Assembly (NCBI GenBank): GCA_038065835.1
Contig: JBBTQB010000007.1
Span: 1-51,420, forward strand
DNA from: Patescibacteria group bacterium
GTDB taxonomy: Bacteria > Patescibacteriota > Minisyncoccia > Minisyncoccales > Staskawiczbacteraceae
Reading direction: 5' to 3'
Length of the DNA stretch: 51,420 nt
Translations under genes and position numbers: made by a program
The notes under the pieces: model-generated
The model's input: only the letters and a program-made list of their open reading frames with translations
Told to the model about the DNA's origin: nothing
The model's database searches: none
Shown here: one piece after another, positions 951 through 46,427 of the stretch
Numbering within the stretch: position 1 is the first letter of the stretch
Layout of the letters: every line of letters starts with the position of its first letter

Positions 951-1634
951 TTACAAAAAATTCTTCAGAATTTTGAAGTCCTCAAACATTTGCTGTTTCA
1001 AGCTGTTTTGATATAAAGCCACAGCGGGGTGATATAATGTTACGATTTTCACCCGGTCAAATTGTCTGACTGTGCCAGACACCGCTTCGCTTTGCGAAGC
1101 GGATTTGACTGGGTTAATGTCCCCATACCACCAAGCTTCTGCATCAAAAACTTTCCCATGAATTTGGCTGATTGGTTTTAATTCCCAAAGAAGTTTGAAT
1201 TTTTGCATAATATAAGCCATAGAATATCTCCCGAGGGTAGCAATAATTTTGGGCTGGATAATTTCAATTTGCCTGTCCAAAAAAGGAGCATATGTTCTTA
1301 TTTCGCTTGGCAACGGGTCTCTGTTATTGGGCGGCCTGTCTTTTATAATGTTGGTAATATAAACATCTTCGCGCCTTAAACTAATTGACTCTACTAGTTC
1401 AGTCAATATATCTCCCGCCGCTCCGCAAAAAGGCCTGCCAGTTTCCGCTTCATTTTTTCCCGGACCCTCTCCAACAAACACAACTTTTGCATCGTGGCTT
1501 CCTTCTCCAATTACGGGAAAAGCTCTATTCTTTATCCTTTCCTTATAAAGCGGTGAATCTTTTAAATTCACTATCTCTTCCTTGATTTGCCTTAAAAGTT
1601 CGTATTTTTCACTATTTGTCATGTTATTTGCCAT
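951..1634 (-). CDS. Uracil-DNA glycosylase, family 4
   Basis: 227-aa ORF with family-4 motifs GEGPGKNEAETGRPFCGAAG and HPAVALY. Contains an in-frame palindromic insert at 1051-1114. Confidence 0.85.
   Translation of the reverse strand: MANNMTNSEKYELLRQIKEEIVNLKDSPLYKERIKNRAFPVIGEGSHDAKVVFVGEGPGKNEAETGRPFCGAAGDILTELVESISLRREDVYITNIIKDRPPNNRDPLPSEIRTYAPFLDRQIEIIQPKIIATLGRYSMAYIMQKFKLLWELKPISQIHGKVFDAEAWWYGDINPVKSASQSEAVSGTVRQFDRVKIVTLYHPAVALYQNSLKQQMFEDFKILKNFL
1051..1114. repeat. Family-F structured palindromic element (closing stem plus two hairpins), intragenic in UDG
   Basis: Termini ACCCGGTCAAAT (1051-1062) and ATTTGACTGGGT (1103-1114) enclose hairpins TGTCTG-n7-CAGACA and CCGCTTCGC-ttt-GCGAAGCGG. 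Local G+C spike. Translated in frame as NPVKSASQSEAVSGTVRQFDRV. Confidence 0.85.
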
Positions 1635-14302: not shown

Positions 14303-14455
14303 ACCCCGCTCAAATTTTGCCATCGCAATTACTCTTCTTACGATAAATCTGGCTAAAAAATTTGGACTCTTACAACCTGCGTGGGGCGAATAGCCCCATC
14401 CCTTGTTGAGCGAAGCGGGTTGCCACCCAGCGTCTTGCAAAATTTGAGCTGGGGT
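14303..14455. repeat. Large family-F-like structured element in the leader of the PIG-L gene
   Basis: 18-19-nt inverted termini ACCCCGCTCAAATTTTGC (14303-14320) and GCAAAATTTGAGCTGGGGT (14437-14455), closely resembling family-F termini. Internal hairpin TGGGGC-gaata-GCCCCA. G+C-rich. Confidence 0.75.
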
Positions 14456-15543: not shown

Positions 15544-16212
15544 TTATTCGGGGGGCTTGTTTACGCCCTCTTTACCATAAACTCCGCGTCTTGACAAAAC
15601 CGCAAAAAAACCTAAAAATAATATTTTAAAATCCAGCCAAAAAGACCGATTTTCAACATACCAGACATCTAATTCTAACCTTTCCCGCCAAGATGATACA
15701 AAACCTCTTCCTTTAATATCCACTAAACATATTAGGCCAGGTTTTACTGATACTCTCTTTTGCCAAAGTGTAGCTGGAAGAATATTTTGGTTAGGATACT
15801 GAGGTAGAGGCCTTGGCCCAACTAGACTCATTTCTCCTTTTAAAATATTAATAAATTGGGGCAGCTCATCAAGCGTCCATTCTCTTAAAAATCTGCCTAC
15901 TCTTGTAATGCGGAAATCATCTTTTGAAACTCCAAGACCTAAACCAATTTTTTCTGCATTTTCTACCATTGTTCTGAACTTTAAAAACTTAAATAACTTT
16001 CCATTCTTTCCTACTCTGTCTTGAATAAAAAAAATCGGGCCTTTAGAGTCCAACTTTATTAATAAGGCAATAAGTAAAAACAGAGGCATTAAAAAAACAA
16101 AGGCAATTAAAGTTATCGTGAAGTCAATTATATTTTTTACCCCGTTAAATAATTTTGCCTTTGGTAAAATTACCGCCCTGCGGTATTTAACTGGGTGAAT
16201 TTTTTCCTTCAT
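15544..16212 (-). CDS. Small monotopic phosphoglycosyltransferase (bacterial sugar transferase, PglC/WbaP C-terminal type), copy 1
   Basis: KLDSKGPIFFIQDRVGKNGKLFKFLKFRTM and DELPQFINILKGEMSLVGPRP. Residues about 5-25 are encoded by repeat 16139-16196. Confidence 0.85.
   Translation of the reverse strand: MKEKIHPVKYRRAVILPKAKLFNGVKNIIDFTITLIAFVFLMPLFLLIALLIKLDSKGPIFFIQDRVGKNGKLFKFLKFRTMVENAEKIGLGLGVSKDDFRITRVGRFLREWTLDELPQFINILKGEMSLVGPRPLPQYPNQNILPATLWQKRVSVKPGLICLVDIKGRGFVSSWRERLELDVWYVENRSFWLDFKILFLGFFAVLSRRGVYGKEGVNKPPE
16139..16196. repeat. Family-F structured element spanning the WbqC stop / PGT N-terminus
   Basis: Termini ACCCCGTTAAATA (16139-16151) and TATTTAACTGGGT (16184-16196). 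Inner hairpins ATTTTGCC-ttt-GGTAAAAT and TACCGC-cct-GCGGTA. Confidence 0.85.
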
Positions 16213-16903
16213 CTGAGTTAAATATTATCTGTTTGCTCTCAGGACCCTTATTAAATAATAAATCGATTGATGACATGTTTGGCACGAATGGTTCATATTT
16301 TTGTTTGTAAATAGGGTGTTTGAATTCGCAATATTGATGAGAAAGCCCTGCTTTTTTAAACTTTGATTCATCAACATAAAGCTTGCCACCCTGTCCTGAC
16401 AAATAACCTTCAGCCCCTATCTTTTTGCACATGTCCAAGAGCATATCTGTTTTTTCGCCGACAATATTGTAATCAGAGTTTCTTAAAATTTTAATATCAG
16501 TGTCCAATATTTTAAAAATAGTCCTTAAAATAGTTTCGTTTAAATCTACAAGTTTTTCCCATTTTTTTGAATATATTTCTTCAAAAAAGGGAATGTAATT
16601 TTCAAAAAAGGGAGTGCTTTTATAAGAGTAATATATTGATTTAAAATGTTTTTCCCTCCATTTTAATTTGTTATTTATTAAAACATCTTTTATCTTTTGA
16701 TGGAAACGCCCATGTGTTATAACAGGAACTGTTAGCCAAATCCAGCCATCGGGCCCATTTGAAGTTCTTATTCTATTTCTATTTTGAAACGATTTTTTGG
16801 CATATTGGGTATTGTCAACAAAAACAAAAGTATCGGCATGCATTGCCTTACAAATAAGGCCTATATAAGGGAGATATTCTGGCTGATGTCCTGCGATTAT
16901 CAT
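16187..16903 (-). CDS. WbqC-family protein (copy 2)
   Basis: 238 aa. GHQPEYLPYIGL and FQNRNRIRT. Its TAA stop (16187-16189) lies inside the repeat terminus. Confidence 0.75.
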   Translation of the reverse strand: MIIAGHQPEYLPYIGLICKAMHADTFVFVDNTQYAKKSFQNRNRIRTSNGPDGWIWLTVPVITHGRFHQKIKDVLINNKLKWREKHFKSIYYSYKSTPFFENYIPFFEEIYSKKWEKLVDLNETILRTIFKILDTDIKILRNSDYNIVGEKTDMLLDMCKKIGAEGYLSGQGGKLYVDESKFKKAGLSHQYCEFKHPIYKQKYEPFVPNMSSIDLLFNKGPESKQIIFNSDEGKNSPS

Positions 16904-20900: not shown

Positions 20901-20921
20901 TATTTATAAAACTTAGTAATT

Positions 20922-20949
20922 AGAGTGCAGGATTCCAATCCTGCACTCT
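20922..20949. repeat. Family-A repeat, short hairpin form
   Basis: AGAGTGCAGGAT-tcca-ATCCTGCACTCT. Arms equal the outer 12 nt of the 51-bp palindrome arms. The last base overlaps the TAA stop of the epimerase gene. Confidence 0.9.
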
Positions 20950-21893
20950 TATTTCTCATGTTGCTTTTTGAACCAATCTACTGTTGAAGACAATCCCTTA
21001 TCTAAGTTGTATTGAGGCTGCCATCTAATAGCTCGTTTTGCCTTCTTAATAGACAAAGCTCCCCTTTTTAATACGCCTGTTGGCAAGGGAATATGTTTGG
21101 CTTCTTTTTTAAATCCGGTAATCTTCTTTAATTTATTAAAGATTTCCATAACTGAAGTTTCTCTGCCTGTGGCTACATTAATAATTCCATTGATATTTTT
21201 ATTGCAAGCAGCCATAGTAACTTTTATAGCATCATCAATAAAAATATAATCTTTTGTCTGCTTGCCGCTACCGTGGATAACACATTGTTTGCCCTGCAGC
21301 ATATTGTTAGCAAAAATTGCAACTACGCCCGCTTCTCCAAATGGATTCTGCCTGGGCCCATAAACATTACCGTAGCGCAGTGCCAAATAGCCTATGTTGT
21401 ACATCATAAAATAAGAATCCAAGTATTTCTCAAAAGCCAATTTGGCAACGCCGTAAGGAGATAAGGGACAAGGAAGATAATCTTCAGGTGTTGGCATGAC
21501 CTTTGCCCGGCCATATATTTCTCCTCCGCTAGAAGCAAAAACTATTTTTTTAACCCCAACACTGCGGCAGTTTTCCAAGATATTTAAACTTCCCAAAATA
21601 TTTGCTTTGGCATCAAAAATTGGATCTTTGACTGACTGCCTAGCTTCAATATGGGCGGCAAAATGAAAAACCATTTCCGGTTTTTCTTTCCTAAAAATAT
21701 TACCAATTTTAAAATCCGTAATGTCTTTTTTATAGAATTTAGCTCTCGCATTTATATTTTCCTTTTTACCGGCGGAAAGGTTATCAATAATAACTACTTT
21801 GTGGCCTTGTTCAAGCAGATTATCAACAAGATGGCTACCTATGAATCCGGCTCCACCAGTAACTAAGATATTTTTTTTGCTAAAACTTTTCAT
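20949..21893 (-). CDS. NAD-dependent sugar-nucleotide epimerase/dehydratase (GalE/WbpP-like SDR)
   Basis: 314 aa. ILVTGGAGFIGSHLV and catalytic SPYGVAKLAFEKY (YxxxK). Confidence 0.8.
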   Translation of the reverse strand: MKSFSKKNILVTGGAGFIGSHLVDNLLEQGHKVVIIDNLSAGKKENINARAKFYKKDITDFKIGNIFRKEKPEMVFHFAAHIEARQSVKDPIFDAKANILGSLNILENCRSVGVKKIVFASSGGEIYGRAKVMPTPEDYLPCPLSPYGVAKLAFEKYLDSYFMMYNIGYLALRYGNVYGPRQNPFGEAGVVAIFANNMLQGKQCVIHGSGKQTKDYIFIDDAIKVTMAACNKNINGIINVATGRETSVMEIFNKLKKITGFKKEAKHIPLPTGVLKRGALSIKKAKRAIRWQPQYNLDKGLSSTVDWFKKQHEK

Positions 21894-21898
21894 CTTAT

Positions 21899-23503
21899 TT
21901 ATAATTTTAGATACTTCTCTAAAAGTGGCACTTTGACGTTCTTTAATCTATCAAGTCCGAAGGGTAGTAGGCATAAAAGGGCTAAAAATGCCGGCATTCT
22001 AATTCTAGTTATCATGCCAAAATTATTTATGTAAAGAGACAAAACTCCAAAAATAAGAAGACTGAAAATAATTAAAGGCAAGATAACTTTGTAATTTACT
22101 TTTATGGATTTTAGCATACCCTTTATAATAAAGAATAGCAGAAAATACCAGGGGATTACTTCTGGCAAAACAAAAAGGTGTTTGGCTTTTTTTAACTGCC
22201 AGGGGAAGGGACCCAAAATAGAGTAAACAAAAGATAAGGAATTGCTTTTAAGAAATGAAATGGGATTGTCAAAACCAGCATCTATTACAATTGAGGAATC
22301 TTGAGCTATTGTACTTTTACCCTCTGGCAGAGGTATGGTTTCTTCTGCTTTTTTGGTTTCTTGAAGCTGAGATTTTGGGGGATAAGCTAGTTCTCTATAA
22401 CCAACAATTGTTTGGGGATTTAAAAAATTTTTAATAGCTTTTACACCCATATATCCTTGAGTAGCTCCGTCTAATGGAGCAATTCTCGGCAAAAAACCAA
22501 GAAGAAGAATCATTATAATTCCATAAATAACTCTTTTTTTAATTCTTAAATCACAAAAGCTAAACCAACAAATTATGAAACTTAAAATAAGTGCATAACC
22601 AATATAAAAACGGAAATGGGTCACTCCAGCCAACACAATATAGAAAATCAAAAAATTTAACCAGGAGAATTTTTTAATTATCTTTAAGGTCAACAACAAC
22701 CCAATAACGCTCAGTAAAACAACTAAAGCATCTTTTAATAACAAACTTCCGTAGAACGCCAAAGAGGGGTAAAAACAAACAATTAATCCCACAATGAAAC
22801 CTTCTTTTTTTGAACGACCTATTTGACAAACCAATAAAAAAACAAATACGGCTATGAGGGCAACTATCCAAGCGTTAAGCAACTGACCCATCAGCATGCT
22901 GGGAACTGTTAGAAGATAAACATAACCAATAGCAAGCGGATAGTAGTGGACCAGCGGCAAACCTAAGAATGGTAAACCTTCTAAAGAAAAATTTCCCGCA
23001 GAAACTCTTTTTGATATTTCTAGTGCAATTGCATGATATTCATTGAAATCTCCCCTTCCCTCACTGAATGGTTGAAAATCTGCATAATATACAAAAACAA
23101 CCATTACGATATGAATCAAAAAAACAATTAAAAAGAGTAGGGTTAAAAACTTTACCGTTTCCCCGCCCGCATCGCTATGCCAGCCTGCATTACCTGCGTT
23201 ATTATGTCTGGCAGGCGAAGCATTGCGGGCAGGCTTTTCTTTTACCCAGTTAGAAAGCTCTGCTTCTTTTTTCTCTTTTTCTAAAAAAGGACTATTGTTT
23301 GTTAAAATATTGCCCTTTCTAACGGGGTTTATTGTGTTAATAAAAAATAAAGCAATAGAAGATAAAAAAACAACAAATATAGCTCCTACAGCCAAATCTT
23401 TGTCAATCAAGGAAAGCAAAGCTAATATAATACAGATTAATATAACTTTATGATACCTTGAAAATGATTCTAAAAAATCCACCTCGTTAGAAGTTATGGG
23501 CAA
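21899..23503 (-). CDS. Polytopic membrane protein, GT-C-like (ArnT/PMT-type) or glycan polymerase/ligase; N-terminus built from repeats
   Basis: 534-aa ORF with at least 9 hydrophobic helices. An acidic loop GDFNEYH follows the helix FLTLLFLIVFLIHIVMVVFVYY. The first ~125 codons overlap three repeat copies, so the start is uncertain (TTG 23503 or GTG 23482). Confidence 0.4.
   Translation of the reverse strand: MPITSNEVDFLESFSRYHKVILICIILALLSLIDKDLAVGAIFVVFLSSIALFFINTINPVRKGNILTNNSPFLEKEKKEAELSNWVKEKPARNASPARHNNAGNAGWHSDAGGETVKFLTLLFLIVFLIHIVMVVFVYYADFQPFSEGRGDFNEYHAIALEISKRVSAGNFSLEGLPFLGLPLVHYYPLAIGYVYLLTVPSMLMGQLLNAWIVALIAVFVFLLVCQIGRSKKEGFIVGLIVCFYPSLAFYGSLLLKDALVVLLSVIGLLLTLKIIKKFSWLNFLIFYIVLAGVTHFRFYIGYALILSFIICWFSFCDLRIKKRVIYGIIMILLLGFLPRIAPLDGATQGYMGVKAIKNFLNPQTIVGYRELAYPPKSQLQETKKAEETIPLPEGKSTIAQDSSIVIDAGFDNPISFLKSNSLSFVYSILGPFPWQLKKAKHLFVLPEVIPWYFLLFFIIKGMLKSIKVNYKVILPLIIFSLLIFGVLSLYINNFGMITRIRMPAFLALLCLLPFGLDRLKNVKVPLLEKYLKL
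23161..23234. repeat. Family-C G+C-rich imperfect palindrome, intragenic
   Basis: GCCCGCA...TGCGGGC, TCGC/GCGA and GCCAG/CTGGC pairings. Shares the words GGCGAAG, GCGGGCAGGC and CCTGC with 8210-8268. Read in frame as ...ARNASPARHNNAGNAGWHSDAGGE... Confidence 0.7.
23244..23328. repeat. Family-B-type element, intragenic, opposite orientation
   Basis: Termini ACCCAGTTAGAAAG (23244-23257) and CTTTCTAACGGGGT (23315-23328), 13/14 complementary. Read in frame as NPVRKGNILTNNSPFLEKEKKEAELSNWV. Confidence 0.75.
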
Positions 23504-23670
23504 AATGTCATATGGGACATTTTGCTTACTCTTTGTTAATTTTTATTATTTACCTTATTTTAACCCATTGAAGTTTTAATTATCCTCATACAAACCCCGT
23601 TAGGGGTTTGTTTCTTTTGCATTTACCTTAAAACTCCTTGACCTCTAACGGGGCAAACTTCTAACGGAGT
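23481..23670. repeat. Family-B stop-to-start palindromic element (long copy 2)
   Basis: Termini ACCTCGTTAGAAGT (23481-23494) and ACTTCTAACGGAGT (23657-23670). Nested pair ACCCCGTTAGGGG (23594-23606) and ACCTCTAACGGGG (23641-23653). TGA of the upstream GT4 at 23671-23673 abuts it. High similarity to 33804-34027. Confidence 0.9.
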
Positions 23671-24687
23671 TCATCTTAAAACGTTATTGATTAAATCCAG
23701 CCATTCTTGGTTAAACCTTTCTATAGTAAAATCTTTGGCGTAATTATAACCTATCTGACCGATTTTTTTTCTTTCCTCTGAATTATTCAGTAAATATTCC
23801 ACCTTCTGTTTTAATTCCTTAAAATCGGTGCAAATTATCTGTCCCCCATTCTCCAATAACTCTCTCATTCCACCCATTCCAGAACCAATTGTAGGCACTT
23901 TCAAAAGCATTGCCTCATGAGTGGTCATAGACCAACCCTCTTTAAATTTAGACATCGTTACAACAACGGAAGATGCTTTCAGCAAGATTAAATAATTTTT
24001 ATAATCTAAATCAAGATTTAGCGTTGGGACTTCAACTTCTTTTCTGCCAGAGGTAACAAGATAAACATCTAAGTCTTTAAGCGCTTCATAAGCATCAACG
24101 ACACCTTTTGGTTTTTGACAGTTTCCAAGATATACTATCGGTTTTCCTTCTAACTTATATTTTTTCTTAAACTCTGAAACTTCTTCTGCTGTAATGTTAA
24201 AATTATTCATACTAAACCCGCAATAAATTTTGCAGACATTTTTGTATCCTTTCTCTAAAAAATAATTCTTCCAGTATTCAGATATTACAACAGTAGCATC
24301 TGCTCTTTTTACCTGAATGTAAAAAAAAGTTTTTTCTAATAAGGGTAACAGCAATCTTGGAATTAAACGAAACCCCGAAAAATCAATGTGAAAAATCAAA
24401 GTTAAGTTTTTGCCTCTTGTATTTTTTTTATTTAATGTGATTGTTGAATAAAAATCTCTTATCCAAAGGTCTTTTTTGCCTCTAAAAAACAAAAGCTTTA
24501 TAAAAGACTCTAAACTTTTAAGGTATCTGTTTTTAAAATAATTTGCCTCTAAATTTACGTACTCTACATCAAAAGTTCCAGATAAGGTGTTAATAACTTG
24601 ATTTTTGTAAATATTCCCCCCAGATCTTTTTGAAAAAATGTTAATCAAACCGATAGTTTCCATGATAGTTATACTGTTTCCCTCCAA
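23671..24687 (-). CDS. GT4-family glycosyltransferase
   Basis: 338 aa. C-terminal EGWSMTTHEAMLLKVPTIGSGMGGMRELLENG (E-x7-E). The true start may be ATG 24663 (METIGLINIF). Confidence 0.7.
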   Translation of the reverse strand: MEGNSITIMETIGLINIFSKRSGGNIYKNQVINTLSGTFDVEYVNLEANYFKNRYLKSLESFIKLLFFRGKKDLWIRDFYSTITLNKKNTRGKNLTLIFHIDFSGFRLIPRLLLPLLEKTFFYIQVKRADATVVISEYWKNYFLEKGYKNVCKIYCGFSMNNFNITAEEVSEFKKKYKLEGKPIVYLGNCQKPKGVVDAYEALKDLDVYLVTSGRKEVEVPTLNLDLDYKNYLILLKASSVVVTMSKFKEGWSMTTHEAMLLKVPTIGSGMGGMRELLENGGQIICTDFKELKQKVEYLLNNSEERKKIGQIGYNYAKDFTIERFNQEWLDLINNVLR

Positions 24688-25634: not shown

Positions 25635-25730
25635 TTATAATAATTTTAATAAAAATTGAAAGGCATAACATCATAGCTCTGATTAATAGACCTTACCACA
25701 AAAATCAGCTTATTTTCAAGTATTTATATT

Positions 25731-25897
25731 GTGAGCTTGGTGAATAATGCCATATTGGCGTCTTTATCTAAAATATCGGCTGCAAATTGGTAAAGATTAT
25801 TCAACGATGCCCTCTGGCATCGCCTCATAATCTTTACCAATTTTCGCTGTGATATTTTAAACAAATCCATCCAAAGAGCATTATTCACCAAGCTCAC
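25731..25897. repeat. 167-bp nested palindrome upstream of the SDR/GT4 sub-operon
   Basis: Perfect 20-bp inverted repeat GTGAGCTTGGTGAATAATGC (25731-25750) / GCATTATTCACCAAGCTCAC (25878-25897). Inside it are the 16-bp pair AATTGGTAAAGATTAT / ATAATCTTTACCAATT and the core GATGCC-ctct-GGCATC. Confidence 0.9.
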
Positions 25898-25921
25898 GTT
25901 ATAATGTACAAACATGGCGCG

Positions 25922-26040: not shown

Positions 26041-26871
26041 TTAAATATTTTTTAATTCTAGTTTCATAATCACCTGTTTGAGAACGCCGATGATTTGCCT
26101 GATCGTCGGATTAGGTTCAGGAAAACTTACCGATACCACAGCCCCATACAGAGTCTCAAAGGAACGTTTATAGCCTTTTTCTTTGCGGGGTCTTCCGCTG
26201 CGTTCTTTACGCTCTTCCTTACCCCTGTCTTTTGCATTATGCAACTGCTCGCGAAGTCTGCCACCAGGAATTTTTTCATCAATTACCTCTTGAAGAACCT
26301 TTGGCTGCTCCTTTTCGGGAATTCCTGATACTTGGTAAAGATTTTCCATTCCAACCTTGCTCGCTCCTGCTGAAGATGCGATCTTTTTAGCTTTTGGGCC
26401 AAGATTCTTAGCAACACTAAGCACCTTGCTAACCCATGATTCGCTTTTATGAACCATTGCTGCAATCTCTATTAAAGTTTTCTTGCGTTCTTCTTTATGA
26501 GCTAGCAACTCTTCTGCTAATTCTATGGGCGACAGATCTTCCCTATGAAGATTTTCGATCAGCCGGATTTTGCTAATGTTGCCATCGCTGATGTCAGCAA
26601 CAATTACCGGAATGGCATGCAAGTTGGCTAATTTGGCCGCTCGTCTGCGACGATCGCCGCATACGGTTTCATATCTCAAACTGCCCTTTTTAGGACGCGC
26701 TAACACCGGCTGAATTATGCCGACATCGGCGATACTCTGAGACAATTCCCTTAGGGAAGAGTCTCCCTTTGTAGGATCAACTGTCCTCAATGCTTTGGCC
26801 GGCGGCTCTAAATGTTTGACTTTCATCATCAAAAACTGAGGATTCCATTTTTCGATTCCGATGACAGCCAT
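26041..26871 (-). CDS. Orphan ParB/KorB-like DNA-binding protein (ParB N-terminal domain + HTH)
   Basis: 276 aa. Arginine patch GDRRRRAA, IENLHREDLSPIELAE, HTH-like SESWVSKVLSVAKNL, basic tail. Strong SD GGAGGT 5 nt before the ATG. G+C visibly above the neighbours. Confidence 0.75.
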   Translation of the reverse strand: MAVIGIEKWNPQFLMMKVKHLEPPAKALRTVDPTKGDSSLRELSQSIADVGIIQPVLARPKKGSLRYETVCGDRRRRAAKLANLHAIPVIVADISDGNISKIRLIENLHREDLSPIELAEELLAHKEERKKTLIEIAAMVHKSESWVSKVLSVAKNLGPKAKKIASSAGASKVGMENLYQVSGIPEKEQPKVLQEVIDEKIPGGRLREQLHNAKDRGKEERKERSGRPRKEKGYKRSFETLYGAVVSVSFPEPNPTIRQIIGVLKQVIMKLELKNI

Positions 26872-28882: not shown

Positions 28883-28897
28883 GAAATATCGATGCTT

Positions 28898-28948
28898 AGA
28901 GTGCAGGATTCGAACTATCATCAATTGATAGTTCGAATCCTGCACTCT
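28898..28948. repeat. Family-A 51-bp perfect palindrome (23-bp arms, 5-nt loop)
   Basis: AGAGTGCAGGATTCGAACTATCA-tcaat-TGATAGTTCGAATCCTGCACTCT. Contains the TGA stop of the methyltransferase and ends 15 nt before the GT4 ATG. Confidence 0.95.
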
Positions 28949-29946
28949 TTAGCGAATAGGCACATACGAATTATTGGCTGCATTAGTATGCATTTGCCTG
29001 CCTGCCGGCAGGCAGGTATATTGGTATCGCGGTTTATTTGTAGTTCAACAAACATTATTCCGTTATTGCGACCCGTTAATCTTCCAAACGTCCACAAAAA
29101 AAACGCCGGGACAAATCCTATTAAATACATCTTAATCTTTGCCAGAATATACAGTACCTTGGCAAGCAGAGAAGATTTTTTGTTTTCAATAGAATTGCTA
29201 GCCGTCCTAGCTGCTAATCCTGACCTAAATCTGCCGTCTATTGCGCCCATTATCATTTTAAACTGCTCTACATAGCAAAAATCCGATATTTCAAAGTTAA
29301 TTTTTGAAAATAAATTAGAAATTGCCTCTTTATTCCACCTTGTGAGGTGATGTGGGGGGAAATCCCAATTATTCCAATTTGCCAGCATGCGTTCCCTAGA
29401 TGGAGTGCTTATTATCATCTTTCCCCCCGGTTTTAACAACTTCTTTGCGCTTTTGATGAATTTCAAAGGATCTTGGACGTGCTCTATCACTTCAAAAAAG
29501 ACAACATAATCAAACAAGGGCAAATTTTGCCTTTTAAAAAAACCTTCAAATGGTTCAGCAAATACATTTTTTAAGCCAAAATATTTTTTGGCTAATTCAA
29601 TGCCTTTTCGGTCAAAATCAACTCCAAAAACCGTATATCCTCTTTTTTCCAGTTCAGCAATAAACTCTCCCGAGCCGCAACCTAGTTCAAGTACGGCAGT
29701 ACCTGCTGGAAACTGCAAATACTTCTGTAAAAACTTTTTGTGGGACCCGCGATATATCTTTGGGCCTATTACATTTTTTATTTCGTAATCGCTTGTCTCT
29801 TCATACCAATGAGCTCCTGGGTTTTTCGCGCCCCAAAAGAATTGCACCTTACAATCTTTGCATTGGTACATAAAAAACTCATTATATTTCATGATGGGTA
29901 TTAGTTCTCTGCTTTCTTTACAAATTGGGCAAACATTGGGATTCAT
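28921..29946 (-). CDS. Zinc-ribbon + class I SAM methyltransferase with membrane helix; repeat-encoded C-terminus
   Basis: CPICKES...CKDCKVQ. Motif I VLELGCGSGEF. Helix MYLIGFVPAFFLWTF. The last ~30 codons run through the 20-nt palindrome and the 51-bp palindrome. Confidence 0.7.
   Translation of the reverse strand: MNPNVCPICKESRELIPIMKYNEFFMYQCKDCKVQFFWGAKNPGAHWYEETSDYEIKNVIGPKIYRGSHKKFLQKYLQFPAGTAVLELGCGSGEFIAELEKRGYTVFGVDFDRKGIELAKKYFGLKNVFAEPFEGFFKRQNLPLFDYVVFFEVIEHVQDPLKFIKSAKKLLKPGGKMIISTPSRERMLANWNNWDFPPHHLTRWNKEAISNLFSKINFEISDFCYVEQFKMIMGAIDGRFRSGLAARTASNSIENKKSSLLAKVLYILAKIKMYLIGFVPAFFLWTFGRLTGRNNGIMFVELQINRDTNIPACRQAGKCILMQPIIRMCLFAKECRIRTIN
28997..29016. repeat. 20-nt perfect palindrome CCTGCCTGCCGGCAGGCAGG (copy 2, inside methyltransferase tail)
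   Basis: Identical to 28556-28575. Read in a different frame as PACRQAG. Confidence 0.95.
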
Positions 29947-31439
29947 TTTTGTGATGTCAAAAACCTTTTTATTTCCTTGCAGATAAACTGGTAATTATTT
30001 TTATCATTTGGGTCTTTCGCATAAAGGATATCTGCCAAGATACTGTTCCTCAAATAAGAAATAATGAATCTCATATTAATTTCCTCCAAATTCACCCCGT
30101 TAGAGGTTTGCTTTGTTTCATTTTCTCTCAAGACTCCCTGATCTCTAATGGGGTTGGGTAAATCCCAATTTATTTGAAGGTCTCTTTTTATTTTTTCCTT
30201 TAAGTCTTCAAAGTTTACTACCTTTTGGCATAAAGGATGATAAGAATAAAATACGTTTCCCAAAACATAGACTGGTTTTCCCTGTATTGCCGCTTCCATG
30301 CCAACCGTGCTGGTCATGGTAATTACGCCTATTGAATTAGCAATAACGTTTGGCGTTGATTCTTCTGAAGACAACAATACAGCATTGGGTATTTTTTTTA
30401 TCTCTTCGTAAAACTGATTGGTCCTTGAGCCAATAGAGCCCGGATGCTCTTTTAAACATAATTTATAAGGAAATGGCAGGGTGGCTGAAACATATTTTAT
30501 GGTAGCTAACTGGTTTGAATAATAGGTTGCTAAAACTAAAGTTGAAGCTTCCGGCTCGTATTGAATAGGAAAAAAGAAATATTTGTCTTTTGAGCTAAGC
30601 TTATTAAATATATTTCCCTGGAGTTTGATTTTAATATTTTTTTTAATGGTTCTAAATGGAGCCATAAGGCTTCTCCTTAACACTGCCTCGCTTTCGTAGT
30701 CAAATCTCTTAACTTTGGACCTATCCAAAAAATACCTGAAGAAAACGTAGCTGGATTCTTTAAGTCTTCTTAAGTAATGTCTAATATAATCAAATAAACT
30801 AAATCTTACTTTGACTATATAATAAGAAGAATAAATGGTTTTGTGAGATATGAACTTTTTTATGAAATTTTTGGCAAATTCTGTTTCGCCCGGCAAAAAA
30901 TCTTCCTTTTTCAAATTTTTGAAATTATCTTCAAATTTTGAGCAGGTCCATTCTAAGTCCCAAATATCTATCCTACCCGGGAAGCGCGATTCGGCGATGC
31001 CACAAAAAGGAATATTATTTTTTTTAGTAAAATAGTAAGCCACCTCGCCAAAAAGCCCTGGCGGCGGTTCCCCAATTACAATATCTGGCTTTTCATAACT
31101 AAAAATGTAGTCAAAAAATTGATAAAGTTGATTTACTATATCCAAAGATTGATTGTAATTGTACCTATTATAAAGATTAAACCTTTCAAAAACAGTAAAA
31201 AGCTCTCTCCAGCTCAAATTCCCAAAGTCTTTTTTTGAAGAATCGTAGTTTTTAATGCACCAATCTATTTTTGATAAAAACTTGGAATTTTTAGGAAAAA
31301 ACTTGCCCTTTTCATACTCAGCAATCTTGCTGTTAAAAACAACCAAACATTCATCTCCTTCTTTTGTAAGCTGATGGGAAATCTTGCCTAAAAATTCAAA
31401 TAAATATGACGCATCATTTATTAAAAATAGCCATTTCAT
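29943..31439 (-). CDS. Capsule polysaccharide biosynthesis protein (KpsS/LpsZ-like, Capsule_synth family)
   Basis: 498 aa. YFFFPIQYEPEAS...CLKEHPGS...ITMTSTVGMEAAIQGKPVYVLG pattern. Carries the in-frame repeat 30094-30154 near the C-terminus. Confidence 0.5.
   Translation of the reverse strand: MKWLFLINDASYLFEFLGKISHQLTKEGDECLVVFNSKIAEYEKGKFFPKNSKFLSKIDWCIKNYDSSKKDFGNLSWRELFTVFERFNLYNRYNYNQSLDIVNQLYQFFDYIFSYEKPDIVIGEPPPGLFGEVAYYFTKKNNIPFCGIAESRFPGRIDIWDLEWTCSKFEDNFKNLKKEDFLPGETEFAKNFIKKFISHKTIYSSYYIVKVRFSLFDYIRHYLRRLKESSYVFFRYFLDRSKVKRFDYESEAVLRRSLMAPFRTIKKNIKIKLQGNIFNKLSSKDKYFFFPIQYEPEASTLVLATYYSNQLATIKYVSATLPFPYKLCLKEHPGSIGSRTNQFYEEIKKIPNAVLLSSEESTPNVIANSIGVITMTSTVGMEAAIQGKPVYVLGNVFYSYHPLCQKVVNFEDLKEKIKRDLQINWDLPNPIRDQGVLRENETKQTSNGVNLEEINMRFIISYLRNSILADILYAKDPNDKNNYQFICKEIKRFLTSQK
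30094..30154. repeat. Family-B core hairpin, intragenic and in frame
   Basis: ACCCCGTTAGAGGT (30094-30107) and ATCTCTAATGGGGT (30141-30154). About 80 percent identical by eye to the inner unit of 33951-34010. Translated NPIRDQGVLRENETKQTSNGV. Confidence 0.85.
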
Positions 31440-32871: not shown

Positions 32872-33805
32872 TTATTATTTTACCATTGTTATTCGCGCTT
32901 TTTTTTATGGCAAACAAAACTTTTAGAACTTCCAATCCGTCCTGCCCCGTGCTTTGAGGCCGTTCTCTTTTTTCTAAGCAAGAGACAATATGCCAAACCA
33001 TTTGAGCCATTAAACTTCTCTGGCTTCCTATTTTTAAATTATTGTAACTTATCTGCATCCCTAATTTTTTAAGAAATAATTTATTCTTTTCACCATAGAA
33101 AGACCATTCGGTAAGTTTTTGCTTTTCGCTTACAGATTGAAGAAATGCCCTTGCTCCACTTTTAAAGAAGATTATTGCATCAACGTTTTTATCTCTTTTG
33201 GGGTTGGATGTTAAATTATTGTAAAAACCAATTACCTCCTTTACTTCGCCTAGAAACATTCTCAGTAAATCCATAATATGGGTTCCATTATTAAAAAGAC
33301 CATTGTGGTAAGCCGAATAAGATTGCAACACGTTTCCCAAAATTCCATTCTTAACTTTTCTTTGCCATCTTTGTATTAAAGAATCAAAGTGCCTTGAGTG
33401 GTTTACAAACAAAAGGCATTTTTTCTGACGACACAATTTAACCATCTCTTTGGCTTCCCCAAGAGAATCAGCAATTGGTTTTTCACAAACTATTGCTTTT
33501 ACTCCCAAGCCCGCTGCCATTTTAACAAACTTATAGTGGGTATTAGTATGAGTCGCTACCGAGACAATATCGGGTTTGGTTTCTTTAAGCATCTTTTTGG
33601 CTGATGAATATAAAGAGACGTCTGGAAAAAGTTTCTTAGCTTTTTTTAATTTTTCAGAATCAATATCACAAAGACCTACCAATTCAATTTTGGAGTTTTT
33701 AAAATAAGCCGCGGCGTGAGTAGCTGGCCTTACGTTTCTTGAGTAATTCCATTCTTGGGCTCCAATCCGACCGCAACCAATAACTACTGCTTTGTATTTT
33801 TTCAC
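32858..33805 (-). CDS. Gfo/Idh/MocA-family sugar-nucleotide oxidoreductase
   Basis: 315 aa. N-terminal Rossmann KAVVIGCGRIG. GTG start at 33805 embedded in the repeat terminus. Confidence 0.8.
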   Translation of the reverse strand: MKKYKAVVIGCGRIGAQEWNYSRNVRPATHAAAYFKNSKIELVGLCDIDSEKLKKAKKLFPDVSLYSSAKKMLKETKPDIVSVATHTNTHYKFVKMAAGLGVKAIVCEKPIADSLGEAKEMVKLCRQKKCLLFVNHSRHFDSLIQRWQRKVKNGILGNVLQSYSAYHNGLFNNGTHIMDLLRMFLGEVKEVIGFYNNLTSNPKRDKNVDAIIFFKSGARAFLQSVSEKQKLTEWSFYGEKNKLFLKKLGMQISYNNLKIGSQRSLMAQMVWHIVSCLEKRERPQSTGQDGLEVLKVLFAIKKSANNNGKIINVVH

Positions 33806-34894: not shown

Positions 34895-35921
34895 TTTTTA
34901 AGATATTATTTATAAAATTTATTACTTTATAGGTTGAATTATTTCTGGTATATTTTTCAAATTCTTCTTTTTTAGCAAGGGGCTTCCTGAAAATATTTCT
35001 TAAAGCAGAATCAAGCTTTTCCTTTTTGTAAACTGGAAAAGACCAGCCGTTTTTGTTGCTTAAAAGCGTGTCGTTTTTTTTGTTTTTACCTGGCTGATAG
35101 CTAACTACTCTTTTACCCATTAAAGAAGCGTCAACAAGTGCTATGGAATTCATGCCAATTGTTAACTCAGCTTTTTGGGCCAATCTTTTACTATCTTCCT
35201 GTTTGCCTGCTTTTTTAATTTTTAATATTGAATTTTTGATTATATGATCGTACTTTTTCCTATTTTTTTCATCATTTTCCTTTGTTGGGTGGAACTTAAT
35301 AATAATTTCTTTTTCAGGATAAACTCCCTCTAAAACACCGACAATGTCTCTGAAAATTTGCAATTCATGTAAATTTCTTCTTGAAAGGGGTTGGGAATAA
35401 AAAATTACCAAATTCTTCCTCTCTTTAACTTTCTTTCCACCAGACAATATGTCAAAACGGGGAGAGCCGGTGATTTTAATTATAGCCTGTGGAATTCCTA
35501 ATTTCTCCAAATCATCTTTCATTTTTCTATCTATTGCCAAAATAGTATTTGGAAGGCTTGATCCTAATCTTTTTTGGTATGAATCCCATGAATCCAGAAT
35601 GATAACTGTTTTTTTATTTAACTTTTTTGAGGCAACAATGAATTTTTTAGCAATGGAAAATTTAAAATCAGAATCATTGGTATCTGCAAAAACAATATCA
35701 GGATTTATTTTTTTGATTATCTTTTCAATATTTGAAAAAGAGCTGTCAGTTAGTAACCTGCATTTGATTTTTTGATTTCTTGCAAAGCGGTATATGTTTT
35801 TATTATCTGAAAAAAGGAGGACAGTAAATTTTCTATTTTTAATCTTTTCAATTATCGGCAAAAAAATGTCTAGTCCTCCCCTTTGTTCTGCGGCAAAAAT
35901 AATCTTAAAGCTTTTTCTCAT
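34884..35921 (-). CDS. GT-B-like protein of unresolved family (candidate sugar-nucleotide 2-epimerase/hydrolase or capsule-type transferase)
   Basis: 345 aa. Weak resemblance only: ITGSPRFD, IIKFHPT, IGMNSIALVDASLMGKRVV. Confidence 0.3.
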   Translation of the reverse strand: MRKSFKIIFAAEQRGGLDIFLPIIEKIKNRKFTVLLFSDNKNIYRFARNQKIKCRLLTDSSFSNIEKIIKKINPDIVFADTNDSDFKFSIAKKFIVASKKLNKKTVIILDSWDSYQKRLGSSLPNTILAIDRKMKDDLEKLGIPQAIIKITGSPRFDILSGGKKVKERKNLVIFYSQPLSRRNLHELQIFRDIVGVLEGVYPEKEIIIKFHPTKENDEKNRKKYDHIIKNSILKIKKAGKQEDSKRLAQKAELTIGMNSIALVDASLMGKRVVSYQPGKNKKNDTLLSNKNGWSFPVYKKEKLDSALRNIFRKPLAKKEEFEKYTRNNSTYKVINFINNILKNGS

Positions 35922-37203
35922 AATCCTTCAGTGCTTTAATGTTCAACTCAATTTTTTCTATGGCTTTAATAAATAGGTCAATTTCCTTCTTGGTTTGGTT
36001 TGGCTGGCAAATATCCGTGCATAACAGTTCTTTTTCGTACATCCTTTCAGCTACCGGACATATGCCTTTGCTATAATCTATTTGATGTGGGTAATCTTTT
36101 GAAACAAATGGAAACTGGGAGTGAGAGTACACTTCTTTCTTTTGGTACATGGGAAACAAGTAAATGGGCTCTTGGTACCCTTGGCCTAAGGGGAAACCTT
36201 CGGCTTTCATTGCTTTGGCAAAAGTTTCTCTTTTTATTCCAATCTTCCTATCCCAAAATCTGATTGGATACGTATAATAAATATGAATATTTTCTTTGGG
36301 TAGGGAAGGAACAACGAGCCAGTTAAACTTTTTCAACCTTTTGGTCAAATAATTAGCTAATATTATTTTTTTATTATTTAGTTTTTTAAGTTTTTTAAGC
36401 TGCTCTGTAACAATTACTGCCTGTAACTCTGTCATACGATAATTACTTCCCAAAACTGGCTCAAAGACACCCTTATTCTTCAAATCATTCATTACTGCCT
36501 CTCCATGATTTCTTATTAACTGGGTGCGAAAAGCGTAGTTTTTATTGTTAGTTACCAGCATACCACCCTCACCAGATTGAATGACTTTATGAACATTAAA
36601 ACTAAATATTCCAATATCGCCTATCGTGGCTAAAAATTTATTTTTGTAAGTAGCTCCAGCTGATTGGGCATTATCTTCAATAATTTTTAAATTATATTTT
36701 TTAGCTATCTTTAAAATTTTACTATAATCAGCAGTTCCACCAAATAAATTAACGGTTAAAATGGCTTTGGTGTTTTTGTTTATCAATGGTTCAATTTTAT
36801 CTGGATCGATACAAAAATCATTTTCATTAATATCACAAAATACGGGCAAGGCATTGTTAAAAAGAATAGCTGAAGCTGTAGCTGACATGGTAAAAGGCGT
36901 AGTAATGACTTCGTCGCCGGGCCCAATACCCAAAGCCCCAATAGCTGCCTGCAGAGCGGTTGAAGCTGAATTGAAAGAAACAGCATACTTTATTTTGAAG
37001 TATTGGCAAAACTTTTTTTCTAATTCTTTTACATAATGTCCCCCTAAAAAATACTGCCCTTCCCTGCCCAAAAAAGCAGAAAGAACTTTAGTCTTCATCA
37101 CCTTTAAAGCAGCTCTTTCTTCTTCTTTTCCCAGCGAGTTGTAAGGTGGCAGTGGATTTTTCAACACCGGCCTGCCTCCAAAAATAGCGAGTTTATTTTT
37201 CAT
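35905..37203 (-). CDS. DegT/DnrJ/EryC1/StrS sugar aminotransferase (long form)
   Basis: 432 aa. PLP lysine in FSFNVHKVIQSGEGGMLVT. Confidence 0.8.
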   Translation of the reverse strand: MKNKLAIFGGRPVLKNPLPPYNSLGKEEERAALKVMKTKVLSAFLGREGQYFLGGHYVKELEKKFCQYFKIKYAVSFNSASTALQAAIGALGIGPGDEVITTPFTMSATASAILFNNALPVFCDINENDFCIDPDKIEPLINKNTKAILTVNLFGGTADYSKILKIAKKYNLKIIEDNAQSAGATYKNKFLATIGDIGIFSFNVHKVIQSGEGGMLVTNNKNYAFRTQLIRNHGEAVMNDLKNKGVFEPVLGSNYRMTELQAVIVTEQLKKLKKLNNKKIILANYLTKRLKKFNWLVVPSLPKENIHIYYTYPIRFWDRKIGIKRETFAKAMKAEGFPLGQGYQEPIYLFPMYQKKEVYSHSQFPFVSKDYPHQIDYSKGICPVAERMYEKELLCTDICQPNQTKKEIDLFIKAIEKIELNIKALKDYEKKL

Positions 37204-37228: not shown

Positions 37229-37284
37229 ACCCGGTTAAATAGCCCAAGGGGCTAATTTCGCAAAGCGAAATTATTTAACTGGGT
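37229..37284. repeat. Family-F structured element, intergenic copy
   Basis: ACCCGGTTAAAT (37229-37240) and ATTTAACTGGGT (37273-37284). Hairpins AGCCC-aag-GGGCT and AATTTCGC-aaa-GCGAAATT. Followed by the tandem repeat (AAATCGT x3). Confidence 0.85.
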
Positions 37285-37308: not shown

Positions 37309-38568
37309 TCAATCACCTTCCCACCCTCGACCAATTAAAACATATTTATCTTCCTTTTCTTTTACTCCCACTCCTTCTCTTTTGTTAATAATAAATTGAC
37401 AATTATCCTTTTTAGTTAATCTAGCCGAATCAACGCCCTCATCTTTTGCATGATTGATTACAGAATCTTGGAGTTGCCACTGATTTCTTTTATTCTTTTT
37501 CCAAATTTCTGGATCTCTTTTCTTGTCAATATAAGACCAGAATTCCTTTTCTGGCATTGAAATCCAACTTAAAAATAATTGTAAGGCTTTTTTGCTTGGT
37601 TTTAAATTCTGATATTTTCTTACAAGTTCAATCCCCTTTTCCTGGGTTAGGCGCTTTAACCTAATTTCTCTAGTTGCATGATCGGTAGCTTTTCCGTAAC
37701 CCCATTTTAAAAATTTAATATAATCATGTAATTCAGAATAATTAAAACAGTCTACATCGTTATATGTGTCAAAAGTTCTTGGCTGCAAAACTGTTTTGTA
37801 GCCATAAAGATTTATCATCAACTCGTGCTGTTTTTTTGAGTCCCAGCGGATATAATTTGAAAGATAAATTCCTCTGACTCCAACTTTTTCTATTTCCTTA
37901 TCGTGAGGGTATTTATAGGGAGTAACATCACTTTCTGATATATTGTCATCAATCAAATCTTCCGATTCAAAACCCATCAAATCATGGTCTTTTCTATACC
38001 TTCTCGTCATTTCTACCTCGTCTAAATGGCTAAACTGACCAACTTGGTCAACTCCTTGATGAACCCCCCAAATGATAAGAGGAATTTTAAATCTAACAGC
38101 GATTTGAACCGGAAAAACAGTCTGCCCGGCAATACAATGCCAGTATACGCTGCCCATTTTTTCTATTGTATACCTCGTTATCTTCTTAACGGTTTCTGGG
38201 GAAATCGTTAAAGTAAATAAATCGCATCCAAAAATGGTTTTTAAATAGGCTAAGTTTCTTATTCCCAATTTTGTGTTGTATTGCTTGTTGTAAGTTACCA
38301 ATAAAGGATGCATTTTATAAACATTTTTTACGGTATGAACTATAAAATAAGAATCTCTAGCTCCGCTAACTGGTATAATGCAGTCATAATTTTTGCCGTC
38401 TTTATTTCTATACTGCTCCAGTATTTTTTTTAATTTTTTCTCACGCTCCGACCAATTAATAACGTCTTTTTCTCCATGGATAAGACACCCGCTGCAAACA
38501 CTTTTTTCATTAAAGATTATGCCAAGAGGATGATTTGCTGGGTATAAACATCTTACACAATATTTCAT
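37309..38568 (-). CDS. N-acetyl sugar amidotransferase (WbuX/PseA/LfnA-type PP-loop enzyme), copy 2
   Basis: 419 aa. N-terminal Cys cluster CVRCLYP...CSGC. PP-loop-like IIPVSGARDS. Confidence 0.75.
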   Translation of the reverse strand: MKYCVRCLYPANHPLGIIFNEKSVCSGCLIHGEKDVINWSEREKKLKKILEQYRNKDGKNYDCIIPVSGARDSYFIVHTVKNVYKMHPLLVTYNKQYNTKLGIRNLAYLKTIFGCDLFTLTISPETVKKITRYTIEKMGSVYWHCIAGQTVFPVQIAVRFKIPLIIWGVHQGVDQVGQFSHLDEVEMTRRYRKDHDLMGFESEDLIDDNISESDVTPYKYPHDKEIEKVGVRGIYLSNYIRWDSKKQHELMINLYGYKTVLQPRTFDTYNDVDCFNYSELHDYIKFLKWGYGKATDHATREIRLKRLTQEKGIELVRKYQNLKPSKKALQLFLSWISMPEKEFWSYIDKKRDPEIWKKNKRNQWQLQDSVINHAKDEGVDSARLTKKDNCQFIINKREGVGVKEKEDKYVLIGRGWEGD

Positions 38569-46380: not shown

Positions 46381-46396
46381 ATTATAGACTTGCTTT

Positions 46397-46427
46397 GTAA
46401 TAATTTTTCGTGACGAAAAATTATTAC
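46397..46427. repeat. Intercistronic 14-bp perfect hairpin incorporating the HAD stop codon
   Basis: GTAATAATTTTTCG-tga-CGAAAAATTATTAC. Confidence 0.85.

Follow-up and report, generated by a model that had tools for sequence, protein, structure and literature searches.

A large, apparently undescribed family of short DNA palindromes with a copy inserted in frame in a Patescibacteria uracil-DNA glycosylase gene

The DNA considered here is a stretch of 51,420 nt (the window) from a Patescibacteria group bacterium of the Staskawiczbacteraceae (assembly GCA_038065835.1, contig JBBTQB010000007.1, positions 1 to 51,420). Its gene for a family-4 uracil-DNA glycosylase (UDG) contains a 64-nt element, closed by a 12-bp stem around two hairpins, that adds 22 residues to the protein. 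The element belongs to what is apparently a large and undescribed family of tiny mobile elements, referred to here as family F. Taken as a whole, family F probably consists of widespread non-autonomous mobile DNA palindromes of ~50-80 nt that are moved in trans as folded DNA, with the UDG copy being selfish. A rough probability of 0.62 is given to this reading. In the literature on the end sequences and on palindromic elements or transposable elements of the miniature inverted-repeat kind (MITEs) in Patescibacteria and the candidate phyla radiation, no published description was found.

The element in the uracil-DNA glycosylase gene

The core of the element is ACCCGGTCAAAT / TGTCTGACTGTGCCAGACA / CCGCTTCGCTTTGCGAAGCGG / ATTTGACTGGGT, and its parts are listed in Table 1. 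An earlier model reading of the bare DNA (the sequence-only reading) had described this place as a block of 64 nt in which a 12-bp stem closes around two hairpins, and both the sequence and the predicted fold bear this out. The plus strand folds at -37.6 kcal/mol (z = -8.3), a value that was reached by 0 of 200 shuffled sequences. The minus strand folds nearly as well (z = -7.9). A second genome has a copy at the same site (L001), in which hairpin 1 is a perfect 8-bp hairpin, TGTCTGGC-TTT-GCCAGACA. Both UDG copies are slightly decayed, with one or two mismatches each and no compensation.

Table 1. Features of the UDG element, its host gene, and the related copies in the window (TIR, terminal inverted repeat; pLDDT, predicted local distance difference test).
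Feature	Positions	Strand	Basis
Host gene, family-4 uracil-DNA glycosylase, 227 aa	951..1634	-	Pfam PF03167 (E = 2e-31); PDB 4zbx (E = 5.5e-43)
Family F element core, 64 nt (12-bp TIR and two interior hairpins)	1051..1114		Sequence, fold, covariance-model match (E = 5.8e-8)
Left terminal arm ACCCGGTCAAAT	1051..1062	+	Pairs with 1103-1114, one G·T at position 5
Hairpin 1, TGTCTG-ACTGTGC-CAGACA	1063..1081		Fold; on the gene strand, 8 pairs including one G·T and a 3-nt loop
Hairpin 2, CCGCTTCGC-TTT-GCGAAGCGG (9 bp, 3-nt loop)	1082..1102		Fold
Right terminal arm ATTTGACTGGGT	1103..1114	+	Fold
Core with conserved junction bases, TTC/core/TAA	1048..1117		Filled and empty alleles, family-wide junction statistics
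22 extra UDG codons, residues 173-194, INPVKSASQSEAVSGTVRQFDR	1053..1118	-	Protein alignment A1; gap against PDB 4zbx; pLDDT
Second F copy, 58 nt	16139..16196		Model match on the minus strand (E = 7e-16); fold
Third F copy, 56 nt, intergenic between 35905..37203 and 37309..38568	37229..37284		Model match on the plus strand (E = 1.6e-14)
Family B copies, ends ACCCCGTTAGA...TCTAACGGGGT	23244-23328, 23594-23654, 30094-30154, 33951-34011 or 34027 (alternative right ends)

The protein has 227 aa here and ~199 in its relatives. Residues 173-194 have no counterpart in a homolog that is 88% identical (P0001; alignment A1), and the filled alleles (window and L001) differ from an empty allele (L002, GATAT/AAAAAT) by exactly 66 nt, which equals the 64-nt core plus 2 nt. 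The in-frame insertion of 22 residues that had been proposed from the DNA is confirmed by this alignment and by the exact size of the gain. The net gain falls within 1048..1117, and its exact boundaries are ambiguous by 2 nt. As for the homologs, all but one of the 120 listed are without the 22 residues. The one carrier, P0002, is also the only other one when ~35 metagenome relatives are included.

The insert is located in a beta-hairpin loop, six residues ahead of LYHPAVALY. An AlphaFold model places it between strands 162-166 and 194-200, and residues 172-191 are the sole internal segment of that model with pLDDT < 50. The insert is therefore predicted to be a disordered loop.

The two carriers have the insert at the same position, with 60 of 66 nt and 17 of 22 residues identical. 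Outside the insert, the window UDG and P0002 are 74.5% identical, and the flanks of the two filled alleles are ~75-78% identical as estimated by eye from the alignment. The nearest relatives of the window UDG (88-81% identical) and those of P0002 (85-81%) are all without the insert. Such a patchy distribution could result from many precise losses, from the same variant having been gained twice at one site, or from a transfer of the insert only. A recombination tract around the insert was also considered and is ruled out, as in its flanks the window gene resembles the empty allele more closely than it does the other filled one.

Other insertions are found in UDG homologs. In L130, the codons for SYGNSSSGSRQSIKII form an 8-residue insert exactly where the 22-residue insert sits. 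Its likeness to part of hairpin 1 is faint, and it may be the remnant of a decayed copy. Three homologs, P0111 (L122:501-1154), P0088 (L123:319-972), and P0070 (L124:50-730), have other multi-hairpin palindromic inserts, in frame and in other loops. A second insert family in these homologs has arms (G)TCCCGA...TCGGGA(C) around small hairpins, including the palindrome TCGAGGATCCTCGA, and P0070 has yet another insert, TCCGCCAAAGGCGGA.... UDG has been invaded repeatedly within the clade of these homologs.

Family F in other genomes

One genome per GTDB species was scanned with the pattern ACCCNGTYAAAT-N25-55-ATTTRACNGGGT. At least 119 stretches elsewhere were found to hold at least 128 copies with the common ends ACCCNGTYAAAT/ATTTRACNGGGT. 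The copies are 49-79 nt long, and all have the ends ACCC...GGGT. Most of the listed copies are in many classes of Patescibacteria (Staskawicz-, Nealson-, Nomura-, Kaiser-, Moran-, Doudna-, and Saccharibacteria). The others are in metagenome-assembled genomes (MAGs) labelled Omnitrophota (four MAGs, one with four loci), WOR-3, Desulfobacterota, Bdellovibrionales, and Bacteroidota.

A covariance model built solely from the copies of other genomes matched exactly three places in the window at E <= 1e-7, and the 12-mer ends are enriched in the window (16 matches vs. 4.7 expected). The three strong model matches and the at least 128 further copies establish that the UDG element is a member of a repeat family, as had been suggested. 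The F pattern had 0 matches in 2.9 million viral contigs, and carriage by phages is rejected. Rfam gave no match to F at the gathering score or at E <= 1, and ARAGORN found no tRNA or transfer-messenger RNA in the window. A tRNA or a known RNA family is ruled out by these two results.

The architecture is common to most of the family. Two hairpins cover at least 85% of the interior in 93 of 131 copies (71%), compared with 4.8% of shuffled interiors. In 78 of these 93 copies, there are zero unpaired bases at all three junctions, which makes a perfect three-way junction. The two hairpins within one copy are unlike each other. Hairpin order as a marker of orientation was considered and rejected, as it is uncorrelated with the asymmetry of the junction described below.

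The hairpins vary in sequence and remain paired. Among 150 rows aligned to the covariance model, standard pairs were found in 98.4% of cells, compared with 75.1% with partners shuffled and 36-50% with partners slid; the alignment is model-fitted and includes both strands of many copies, so these absolute numbers lean to structure, and the margins are very large. Changes on both sides were seen at 14 of 14 modelled hairpin pairs. The covariation score was 0.485 vs. 0.106 and was equalled in 0 of 500 shuffles. Between close copies (interior identity of 75-99%), the differences at hairpin pairs consist of 130 compensated doubles, 51 singles that leave a wobble pair, 29 singles that break the pair, and 12 doubles that break it; the copy pairs compared are not independent. 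The claim that the architecture is kept while the hairpin sequence changes is thus upheld by very strong covariation. Selection on structure is not the sole explanation of the covariation; mutations that arise in concert within a palindrome would produce it as well. Either selection for folding or such a concerted process, of repair or of mutation, preserves the complementarity of the arms. Family F provides unusually clean material for asking what keeps DNA palindromes perfect.

The hairpins have the character of DNA. G·T accounts for 16 of 977 hairpin pairs (1.6%). The loop is 3 nt in 98 of 144 hairpins (AAA, TTT, GAA, or TTC), pairs with C on the 5' side and G on the 3' side outnumber the reverse (340 vs. 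157), and loops tend to close on 5'-C...G-3'. A C-G pair that closes a small loop of 3 nt is a typical feature of stable mini-hairpins of DNA. The aligned copies have no conserved unpaired bases. A selected RNA fold would be expected to contain G·U pairs freely and to keep to one sense, so the low number of G·T pairs and the folding of both strands favour DNA. The conclusion is that DNA palindromes are what is constrained, either in the form of a cruciform or as one or the other strand in single-stranded form. The sequence-only reading had left this as a folded RNA or single-stranded DNA. The DNA part of that statement is retained, and the RNA part is set aside by the few G·T pairs, the folding of both strands, the occurrence in both orientations, and the lack of an Rfam match.

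The junctions of the copies are also conserved. Counted outward from the 12-bp arms, T occupies positions -3 and -2 in 87% of copies, and A occupies +2 and +3 in 88%. The bases at -1 and +1 are T...G in 42 and C...A in 36 of 127 copies, which represents one asymmetric junction in two orientations. The junction-oriented consensus is R-T-T-C / core / A-A-A, and there is no conservation beyond +/-4. In three comparisons of filled and empty sites, each gain is the core plus 2 nt and there is no target duplication. Two further empty sites involve copies inserted in other repeats (L050 vs. L051 and L086 vs. L034), and 'TC + core' at T^RAA is the best fit for both. No consistent target-site duplication was found family-wide when all offsets and lengths were examined. 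The residual direct-repeat signal is weak and consists of A/T runs, apart from the WOR-3 copies within GGACGCAGAT/GAACGCAGAT 10-mer repeats. Hairpins as guides to the target were rejected; interior and flank share no more words than shuffled pairings, and no complementarity was detectable.

The WOR-3/Stahlbacteria copies (L050, L051, L055, L092, L100, L103, L113, and L114) have unstructured interiors and are located inside another repeat. This host repeat is made of tandem 10-mers, GGACGCAGAT GAACGCAGAT, and it mimics a target duplication of 9-10 bp.

Several observations relate to the movement of the copies. A single genome can hold near-identical copies in different places (L019, L023, and L046, and also two in L031), and copies are often adjacent, clustered, or in tandem. 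A common 58-nt type has GCCGC-TTT-GCGGC followed by AATTTCGCC-AAA-GGCGAAATT. Its interiors are 91-94% identical across distant lineages, such as a Doudnabacteria MAG and an Omnitrophota MAG. The interior can also differ at one site. At an orthologous site of L005 and L064, with flanks ~80% identical and the same junction asymmetry, the hairpins are different and their order is inverted. L072 has a 58-nt two-hairpin copy at the site where L093 has a 117-nt element with compensated end variants (ACCCTCCTAAAT / ATTTAGGAGGGT). Such in-situ inversion or replacement accounts for the lack of correlation of hairpin order with the junction asymmetry.

The conserved ends limit the frames in which a copy can be translated. 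Only xAC CCN GTY AAA and TTT RAC NGG GTR are stop-free through the ends, besides ACC CNG TTA AAT at the 5' end, and copies with a length of 0 mod 3 consequently cannot be read through. When all frames were tested, 12 copies were deep inside long open reading frames (ORFs). In the permissive frame, this number is 14 of 131 (~11%). All of these have a length of 1 mod 3. None of the 33 copies with a length of 2 mod 3 is deep in an ORF, though one frame is open to them, and the probability of this is ~0.01 if position is independent of length class. The length classes are 69 copies of 1 mod 3, with 33 and 29 in the others, and the excess is mainly due to the common 58-nt type. The ORF-length pattern is the one that survival of frame-preserving insertions predicts. 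Family F accounts for "indels" of 17-26 residues, spurious N-terminal extensions, and stop codons borrowed by genes of these MAGs. In annotation, copies can be flagged automatically with the covariance model.

Explanations for the spread of family F

The lack of duplication, the strand-marking junction, the DNA-type hairpins, and a terminal stem that joins both junctions point to movement as single-stranded DNA by an enzyme acting in trans. In most copies, the two hairpins abut each other and the terminal stem, which allows either strand to fold into a three-way junction. Excision and insertion would involve folded single-stranded DNA or an extruded cruciform, and an enzyme encoded elsewhere in the genome would read the terminal stem. 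The most likely enzyme is an HUH/Y1 or other structure-specific recombinase rather than a DDE transposase. The copy in UDG is probably selfish DNA that survived by its frame-keeping length, by the stop-free frame in use, and by the tolerance of the beta-hairpin loop.

A number of results weigh against this reading. No transposase or recombinase was found in the 40 of 45 window ORFs that were scanned; these lie on the minus strand and include SecA, MurB, a ParB-like protein, and a long cluster for glycan synthesis. Within ~4 kb of 119 copies, no transposase or recombinase recurs, and the clustered ORFs there belong to housekeeping families only. A longer ORF-bearing element with F ends was not found in the window or in ~0.9 Mb of loci, where distant pairs of F ends enclose ordinary genes only. 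The perfect TIRs are typical of DDE elements and not of IS200/IS605 ends. The WOR-3 copies share the 12-bp ends and have unstructured interiors, which means that hairpins are not required for family membership. Relative to the nearest long ORF, the strand of 'TC + core' is sense in 56 cases and antisense in 29, a bias of only 56:29. The UDG site fits every partition of the gained DNA with one mismatch, and the two travelling junction bases are ambiguous. The patchy distribution of the UDG insert is explained neither by simple vertical inheritance nor by simple transposition. Some cross-phylum copies are on short MAG contigs and some labels are doubtful, with mis-binning being possible.

A search for a Y1 transposase whose ends match those of F found none, either in the window or in the ~4 kb around 119 other copies, a sample that a single-copy enzyme acting in trans could escape. 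One of the 119 loci (L004) has a Y1-like gene, 6 kb from the copy. A Y1-like protein from L125 matched L004 only, and neither gene is flanked by F copies. The L125 protein (L125:5139-5594) has 151 aa, a weak match to Y1_Tnp (PF01797), and an HYH motif. Its gene is ~480 nt upstream of that for P0111, a UDG homolog, from which one small ORF separates it, and is closely followed by a GC-rich hairpin, GGAGCTAGGCTAAGCCTAGCTCC. The UDG homolog beside it carries a different element family. This protein is a candidate for an enzyme of the sort that might move such palindromes.

A more far-reaching version of this mechanism can be put forward only tentatively. It holds that the elements are cross-phylum, self-folding replicators of single-stranded DNA that are served by a single-copy host HUH or tyrosine enzyme, with the same arms permitting inversion or exchange of interiors in situ and with concerted repair of the arms. 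The terminal stem would join both junctions, and the enzyme would cut and rejoin without duplication. Template switching or conversion within a hairpin would keep the arms complementary while the sequence drifts. If true, this would be a REPIN-like partnership (REPINs are mobile palindromes formed of repetitive extragenic palindromic sequences, REPs) in Patescibacteria and their neighbours that writes short disordered loops into essential proteins.

Family F could also be made up of classical MITEs, that is, deletion derivatives of an insertion sequence (IS) with a DDE transposase that binds the 12-bp TIRs and moves double-stranded DNA, with the hairpins as incidental filler. The perfect and conserved TIRs fit this explanation, as do the ordinary unstructured interiors of the WOR-3 copies and some Patescibacteria copies. 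Another repeat of the window, family B, has related ends and a conserved interior that is not hairpin-like. An adjacent direct repeat of 6/7 or better was seen in 7 of 82 copies, compared with 1-2 in controls, but the few direct repeats are mostly A/T runs and no consistent duplication exists family-wide. The gain at the three empty sites was the core plus 2 nt, without duplication, and a partner IS with F ends was not found in the window or in ~0.9 Mb of loci. Moreover, a two-hairpin layout that is far above chance and kept by compensated changes is unlike filler. An origin as classical MITEs is therefore unlikely.

The differing contents of orthologous sites (L005/L064 with inverted order, L072/L093 with different element classes) suggest another origin, in which the 12-bp arms are sites for a host tyrosine or serine recombinase and the interior is an invertible or exchangeable cassette that spreads without transposition. 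The lack of correlation between hairpin order and junction asymmetry agrees with this, and so does the presence of the same insert variant in two UDG lineages whose nearer relatives are without it. In addition, TGTTAAAT appears to match the outer part of the XerD arm of the Escherichia coli dif site. However, neither end amounts to more than half of a core site normal for a recombinase, with nothing conserved beyond +/-4, and the copies are dispersed, not at one chromosomal site. No recombinase is associated with them; a XerD-like gene in L073 is an ordinary neighbour. The order of the boxes is also the reverse of that in integron attC sites. Recombination-site modules of this kind are thus improbable.

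Selection of the fold in transcripts, with the DNA repeats merely encoding a structured RNA that is cis-regulatory, involved in processing, stabilising, or a small noncoding RNA, is very improbable. Strong folding energies, very strong covariation, and the mild orientation bias to nearby genes (56:29) would suit such an RNA. Against it, G·U is nearly absent (16/977), the two strands fold equally, and there are no conserved unpaired bases. Copies occur in both orientations, in coding frames as well as between genes, and hairpin order can be inverted at one orthologous site. The T before and A after the element are not terminator-like, and no Rfam family matches.

It is hardly credible that UDG and other proteins keep the insert for a useful encoded loop, with the DNA palindrome secondary. 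In favour of this, the insert is in frame, stop-free, and identical to that of P0002 at 17 of 22 residues, and other proteins also contain end peptides of the form (H/N/Y)PVK ... F(N/D)RV(K). These, however, are a direct consequence of the conserved ends of the DNA, and different copies encode unrelated interior peptides. Furthermore, 117 of 131 copies are not deep inside ORFs, nearly all UDG relatives are without the insert, and it is modelled as disordered.

Other repeats of the window and comparison with known systems

The two other F copies of the window have the same ends and layout as the UDG copy, and their hairpins differ and still fold, as had been noted. The copy at 16139-16196 supplies the TAA stop of the upstream WbqC-like gene (16187..16903). 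It also adds 20 in-frame codons (IHPVK...FNGV) after codon 4 of a sugar transferase (15544..16212). A paralog of this transferase is without the 20 codons, and its Bac_transf domain begins at residue 12, compared with residue 26 here. The interior of the copy at 37229 is 93% identical to that of the L041 copy. Two details of the sequence-only reading did not hold. It had given the three copies one shared asymmetric stem position, whereas position 5 is G·T in two of them and C·T at 16139; family-wide, this is simply the stem's variable position, mostly T:A or C:G. It had also given them one orientation, whereas the copy at 16139 is inverted relative to that at 37229 by model strand and by junction asymmetry. 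The true family-wide asymmetry is the T...G / C...A at -1/+1, one base outside the block as first delimited.

A link between F and family B had been suggested as well. It is weakly supported, by the related ends (ACCCCGTTAGA vs. ACCCNGTTAAAT) and by weak matches of the family B copies to the F model (E of 0.002-0.5). The interiors of family B are conserved and not hairpin-like. A 150-nt intergenic element at 14304-14453 has F-like ends, CCCCGCTCAAAT...ATTTGAGCTGGGG (also given as CCCCGCTCAAATTTTGC...GCAAAATTTGAGCTGGGG). Its long interior does not consist of two simple hairpins, and the element is alike in kind to the 117-nt element of L093 at the L072 site. On the likeness of their ends, it is plausible that F, family B, and this element form a superfamily.

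Other repeats are present in the window. A composite element of ~205-225 nt has two copies, 23474-23677 and 33804-34027, with the ends ACCCCGTTAGAAGT...ACTTCTAACGGGGT, which are degenerate in the first copy. Both have a nested 61-nt family B element near the 3' end, and the second copy fills the gap between two genes exactly. Another palindrome family, at 20919-20952 and 28897-28949, has the common arms TAGAGTGCAGGATT...AATCCTGCACTCT. Its longer copy has 23-bp perfect arms, contains AGTTCGAATCCTGCACTCT, and sits where two genes overlap. By eye, AGTTCGAATCCTGCACTCT is like the 3' part of a tRNA, and ARAGORN calls no tRNA there. Perfect or near-perfect intergenic palindromes unrelated in sequence to family F are found at 2421-2464 (22-bp arms, no spacer), 46388-46436 (24-nt arms), and 48914-48969 (17-bp arms and a 22-nt spacer). 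A large imperfect inverted repeat at 25724-25904, with 54-nt arms that are 78% complementary, surrounds a second palindrome (25784-25843). It occupies part of the gap upstream of 26041-26871, a gene whose product has a ParB N-terminal domain.

Much of the window is a surface-glycan biosynthesis cluster with duplicated pairs of WbqC-like and sugar-transferase genes. The minus strand holds 44 of the 45 long ORFs and the GC skew is negative throughout, so the window is probably within one replication arm.

Family F can be compared with several known systems. The attC sites of integrons have boxes with the consensus GTTRRRY/RYYYAAC, in the order 5'-RYYYAAC ... GTTRRRY-3'. F is like attC in that structure is conserved over sequence, in its similar length, and in its fold as single-stranded DNA, and GTTAAAT/ATTTAAC fits the box consensus. 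Integron attC is nevertheless ruled out by the reversed box order and by the lack of extrahelical bases and of cassette arrays, and the boundary is not at G^TT. Every base of the F stems is paired, and in contrast to the cassette context of attC, the copies are scattered within ordinary genes and between them.

Transposition of IS200/IS605 elements as single-stranded DNA gives no target duplication and involves hairpins near both ends, a short target motif, and a strand-marking asymmetric junction. F shares all of these features, its conserved short junction motif being R-T-T-C / core / A-A-A. However, the ends of IS200/IS605 are not mutual inverted repeats and their two hairpins are alike, whereas F has perfect TIRs and two unlike hairpins that vary between copies. 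Another difference is that IS200/IS605 elements have a strong bias of orientation with replication, whereas the strand bias of F relative to genes is weak (56:29).

Bacterial MITEs such as Correia, ERIC, RUP, and Nezha are small, have TIRs and no ORF, and occur in many copies, occasionally in frame within genes (PMC10969869). With its 12-bp TIRs, lengths of 49-79 nt, and three window copies plus at least 128 elsewhere, F is similar. MITEs have target-site duplications and usually a recognisable parent IS, whereas neither was found for F at three empty sites, in family-wide tests, or in ~0.9 Mb of loci. Compared with MITEs, the conservation of only 12 bp, the variable and perfectly paired hairpins, and the lack of a target duplication point to a non-standard mobilisation.

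REPINs are presumed to be mobilised in trans by a single-copy enzyme and to persist for long periods (PMC3116915; PMC6006769). F is also non-autonomous palindromic DNA that is predicted to fold as single-stranded DNA and that is dispersed, clustered, and present in many copies. REPs are almost wholly extragenic, imperfect single hairpins with GTAG or CGTC tags (PMC3733652). F differs in having ends that start with ACCC, no GTAG or CGTC tag, and a three-way junction. It also differs in that it is not strictly extragenic, with two of three window copies overlapping coding sequence and 14 of 131 deep in ORFs. In the systems of REP-associated tyrosine transposases (RAYTs), the Y1 gene is flanked by the repeats. 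No RAYT gene with F copies on its flanks was seen, and the Y1-like genes of L125 and L004 are not flanked by F, though a single-copy gene would rarely be within the sampled 8-kb stretches.

Rickettsia palindromic elements (RPEs) are short palindromic repeats that are found in frame in unrelated housekeeping genes and are translated as extra loops compatible with the fold (PMC10969869). F likewise includes in-frame, translated palindromes, as in UDG and the sugar transferase, with 14 of 131 copies deep in ORFs and a frame-keeping length. Both F and RPEs are in reduced, host-dependent bacteria. RPEs are ~100-150 bp, are in Rickettsia only, and have a sequence that is common within a family, while F is 50-80 nt with only the 12-bp ends in common. 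F is set apart from RPEs by size, by a host range of many Patescibacteria classes and other phyla, by an architecture of two perfect, variable hairpins, and by having only ~11% of its copies deep in ORFs. Patescibacteria genomes are tiny and streamlined, and persistent selfish palindromes in them, some located in genes of housekeeping enzymes, bear on the tolerance, and perhaps the use, of mobile DNA. Family F belongs among the short non-autonomous palindromic mobile elements, an ordinary category in which it is unusual in its detail and breadth. By analogy, RPEs are its closest counterpart in behaviour, and the REPIN/RAYT system is the closest in mechanism.

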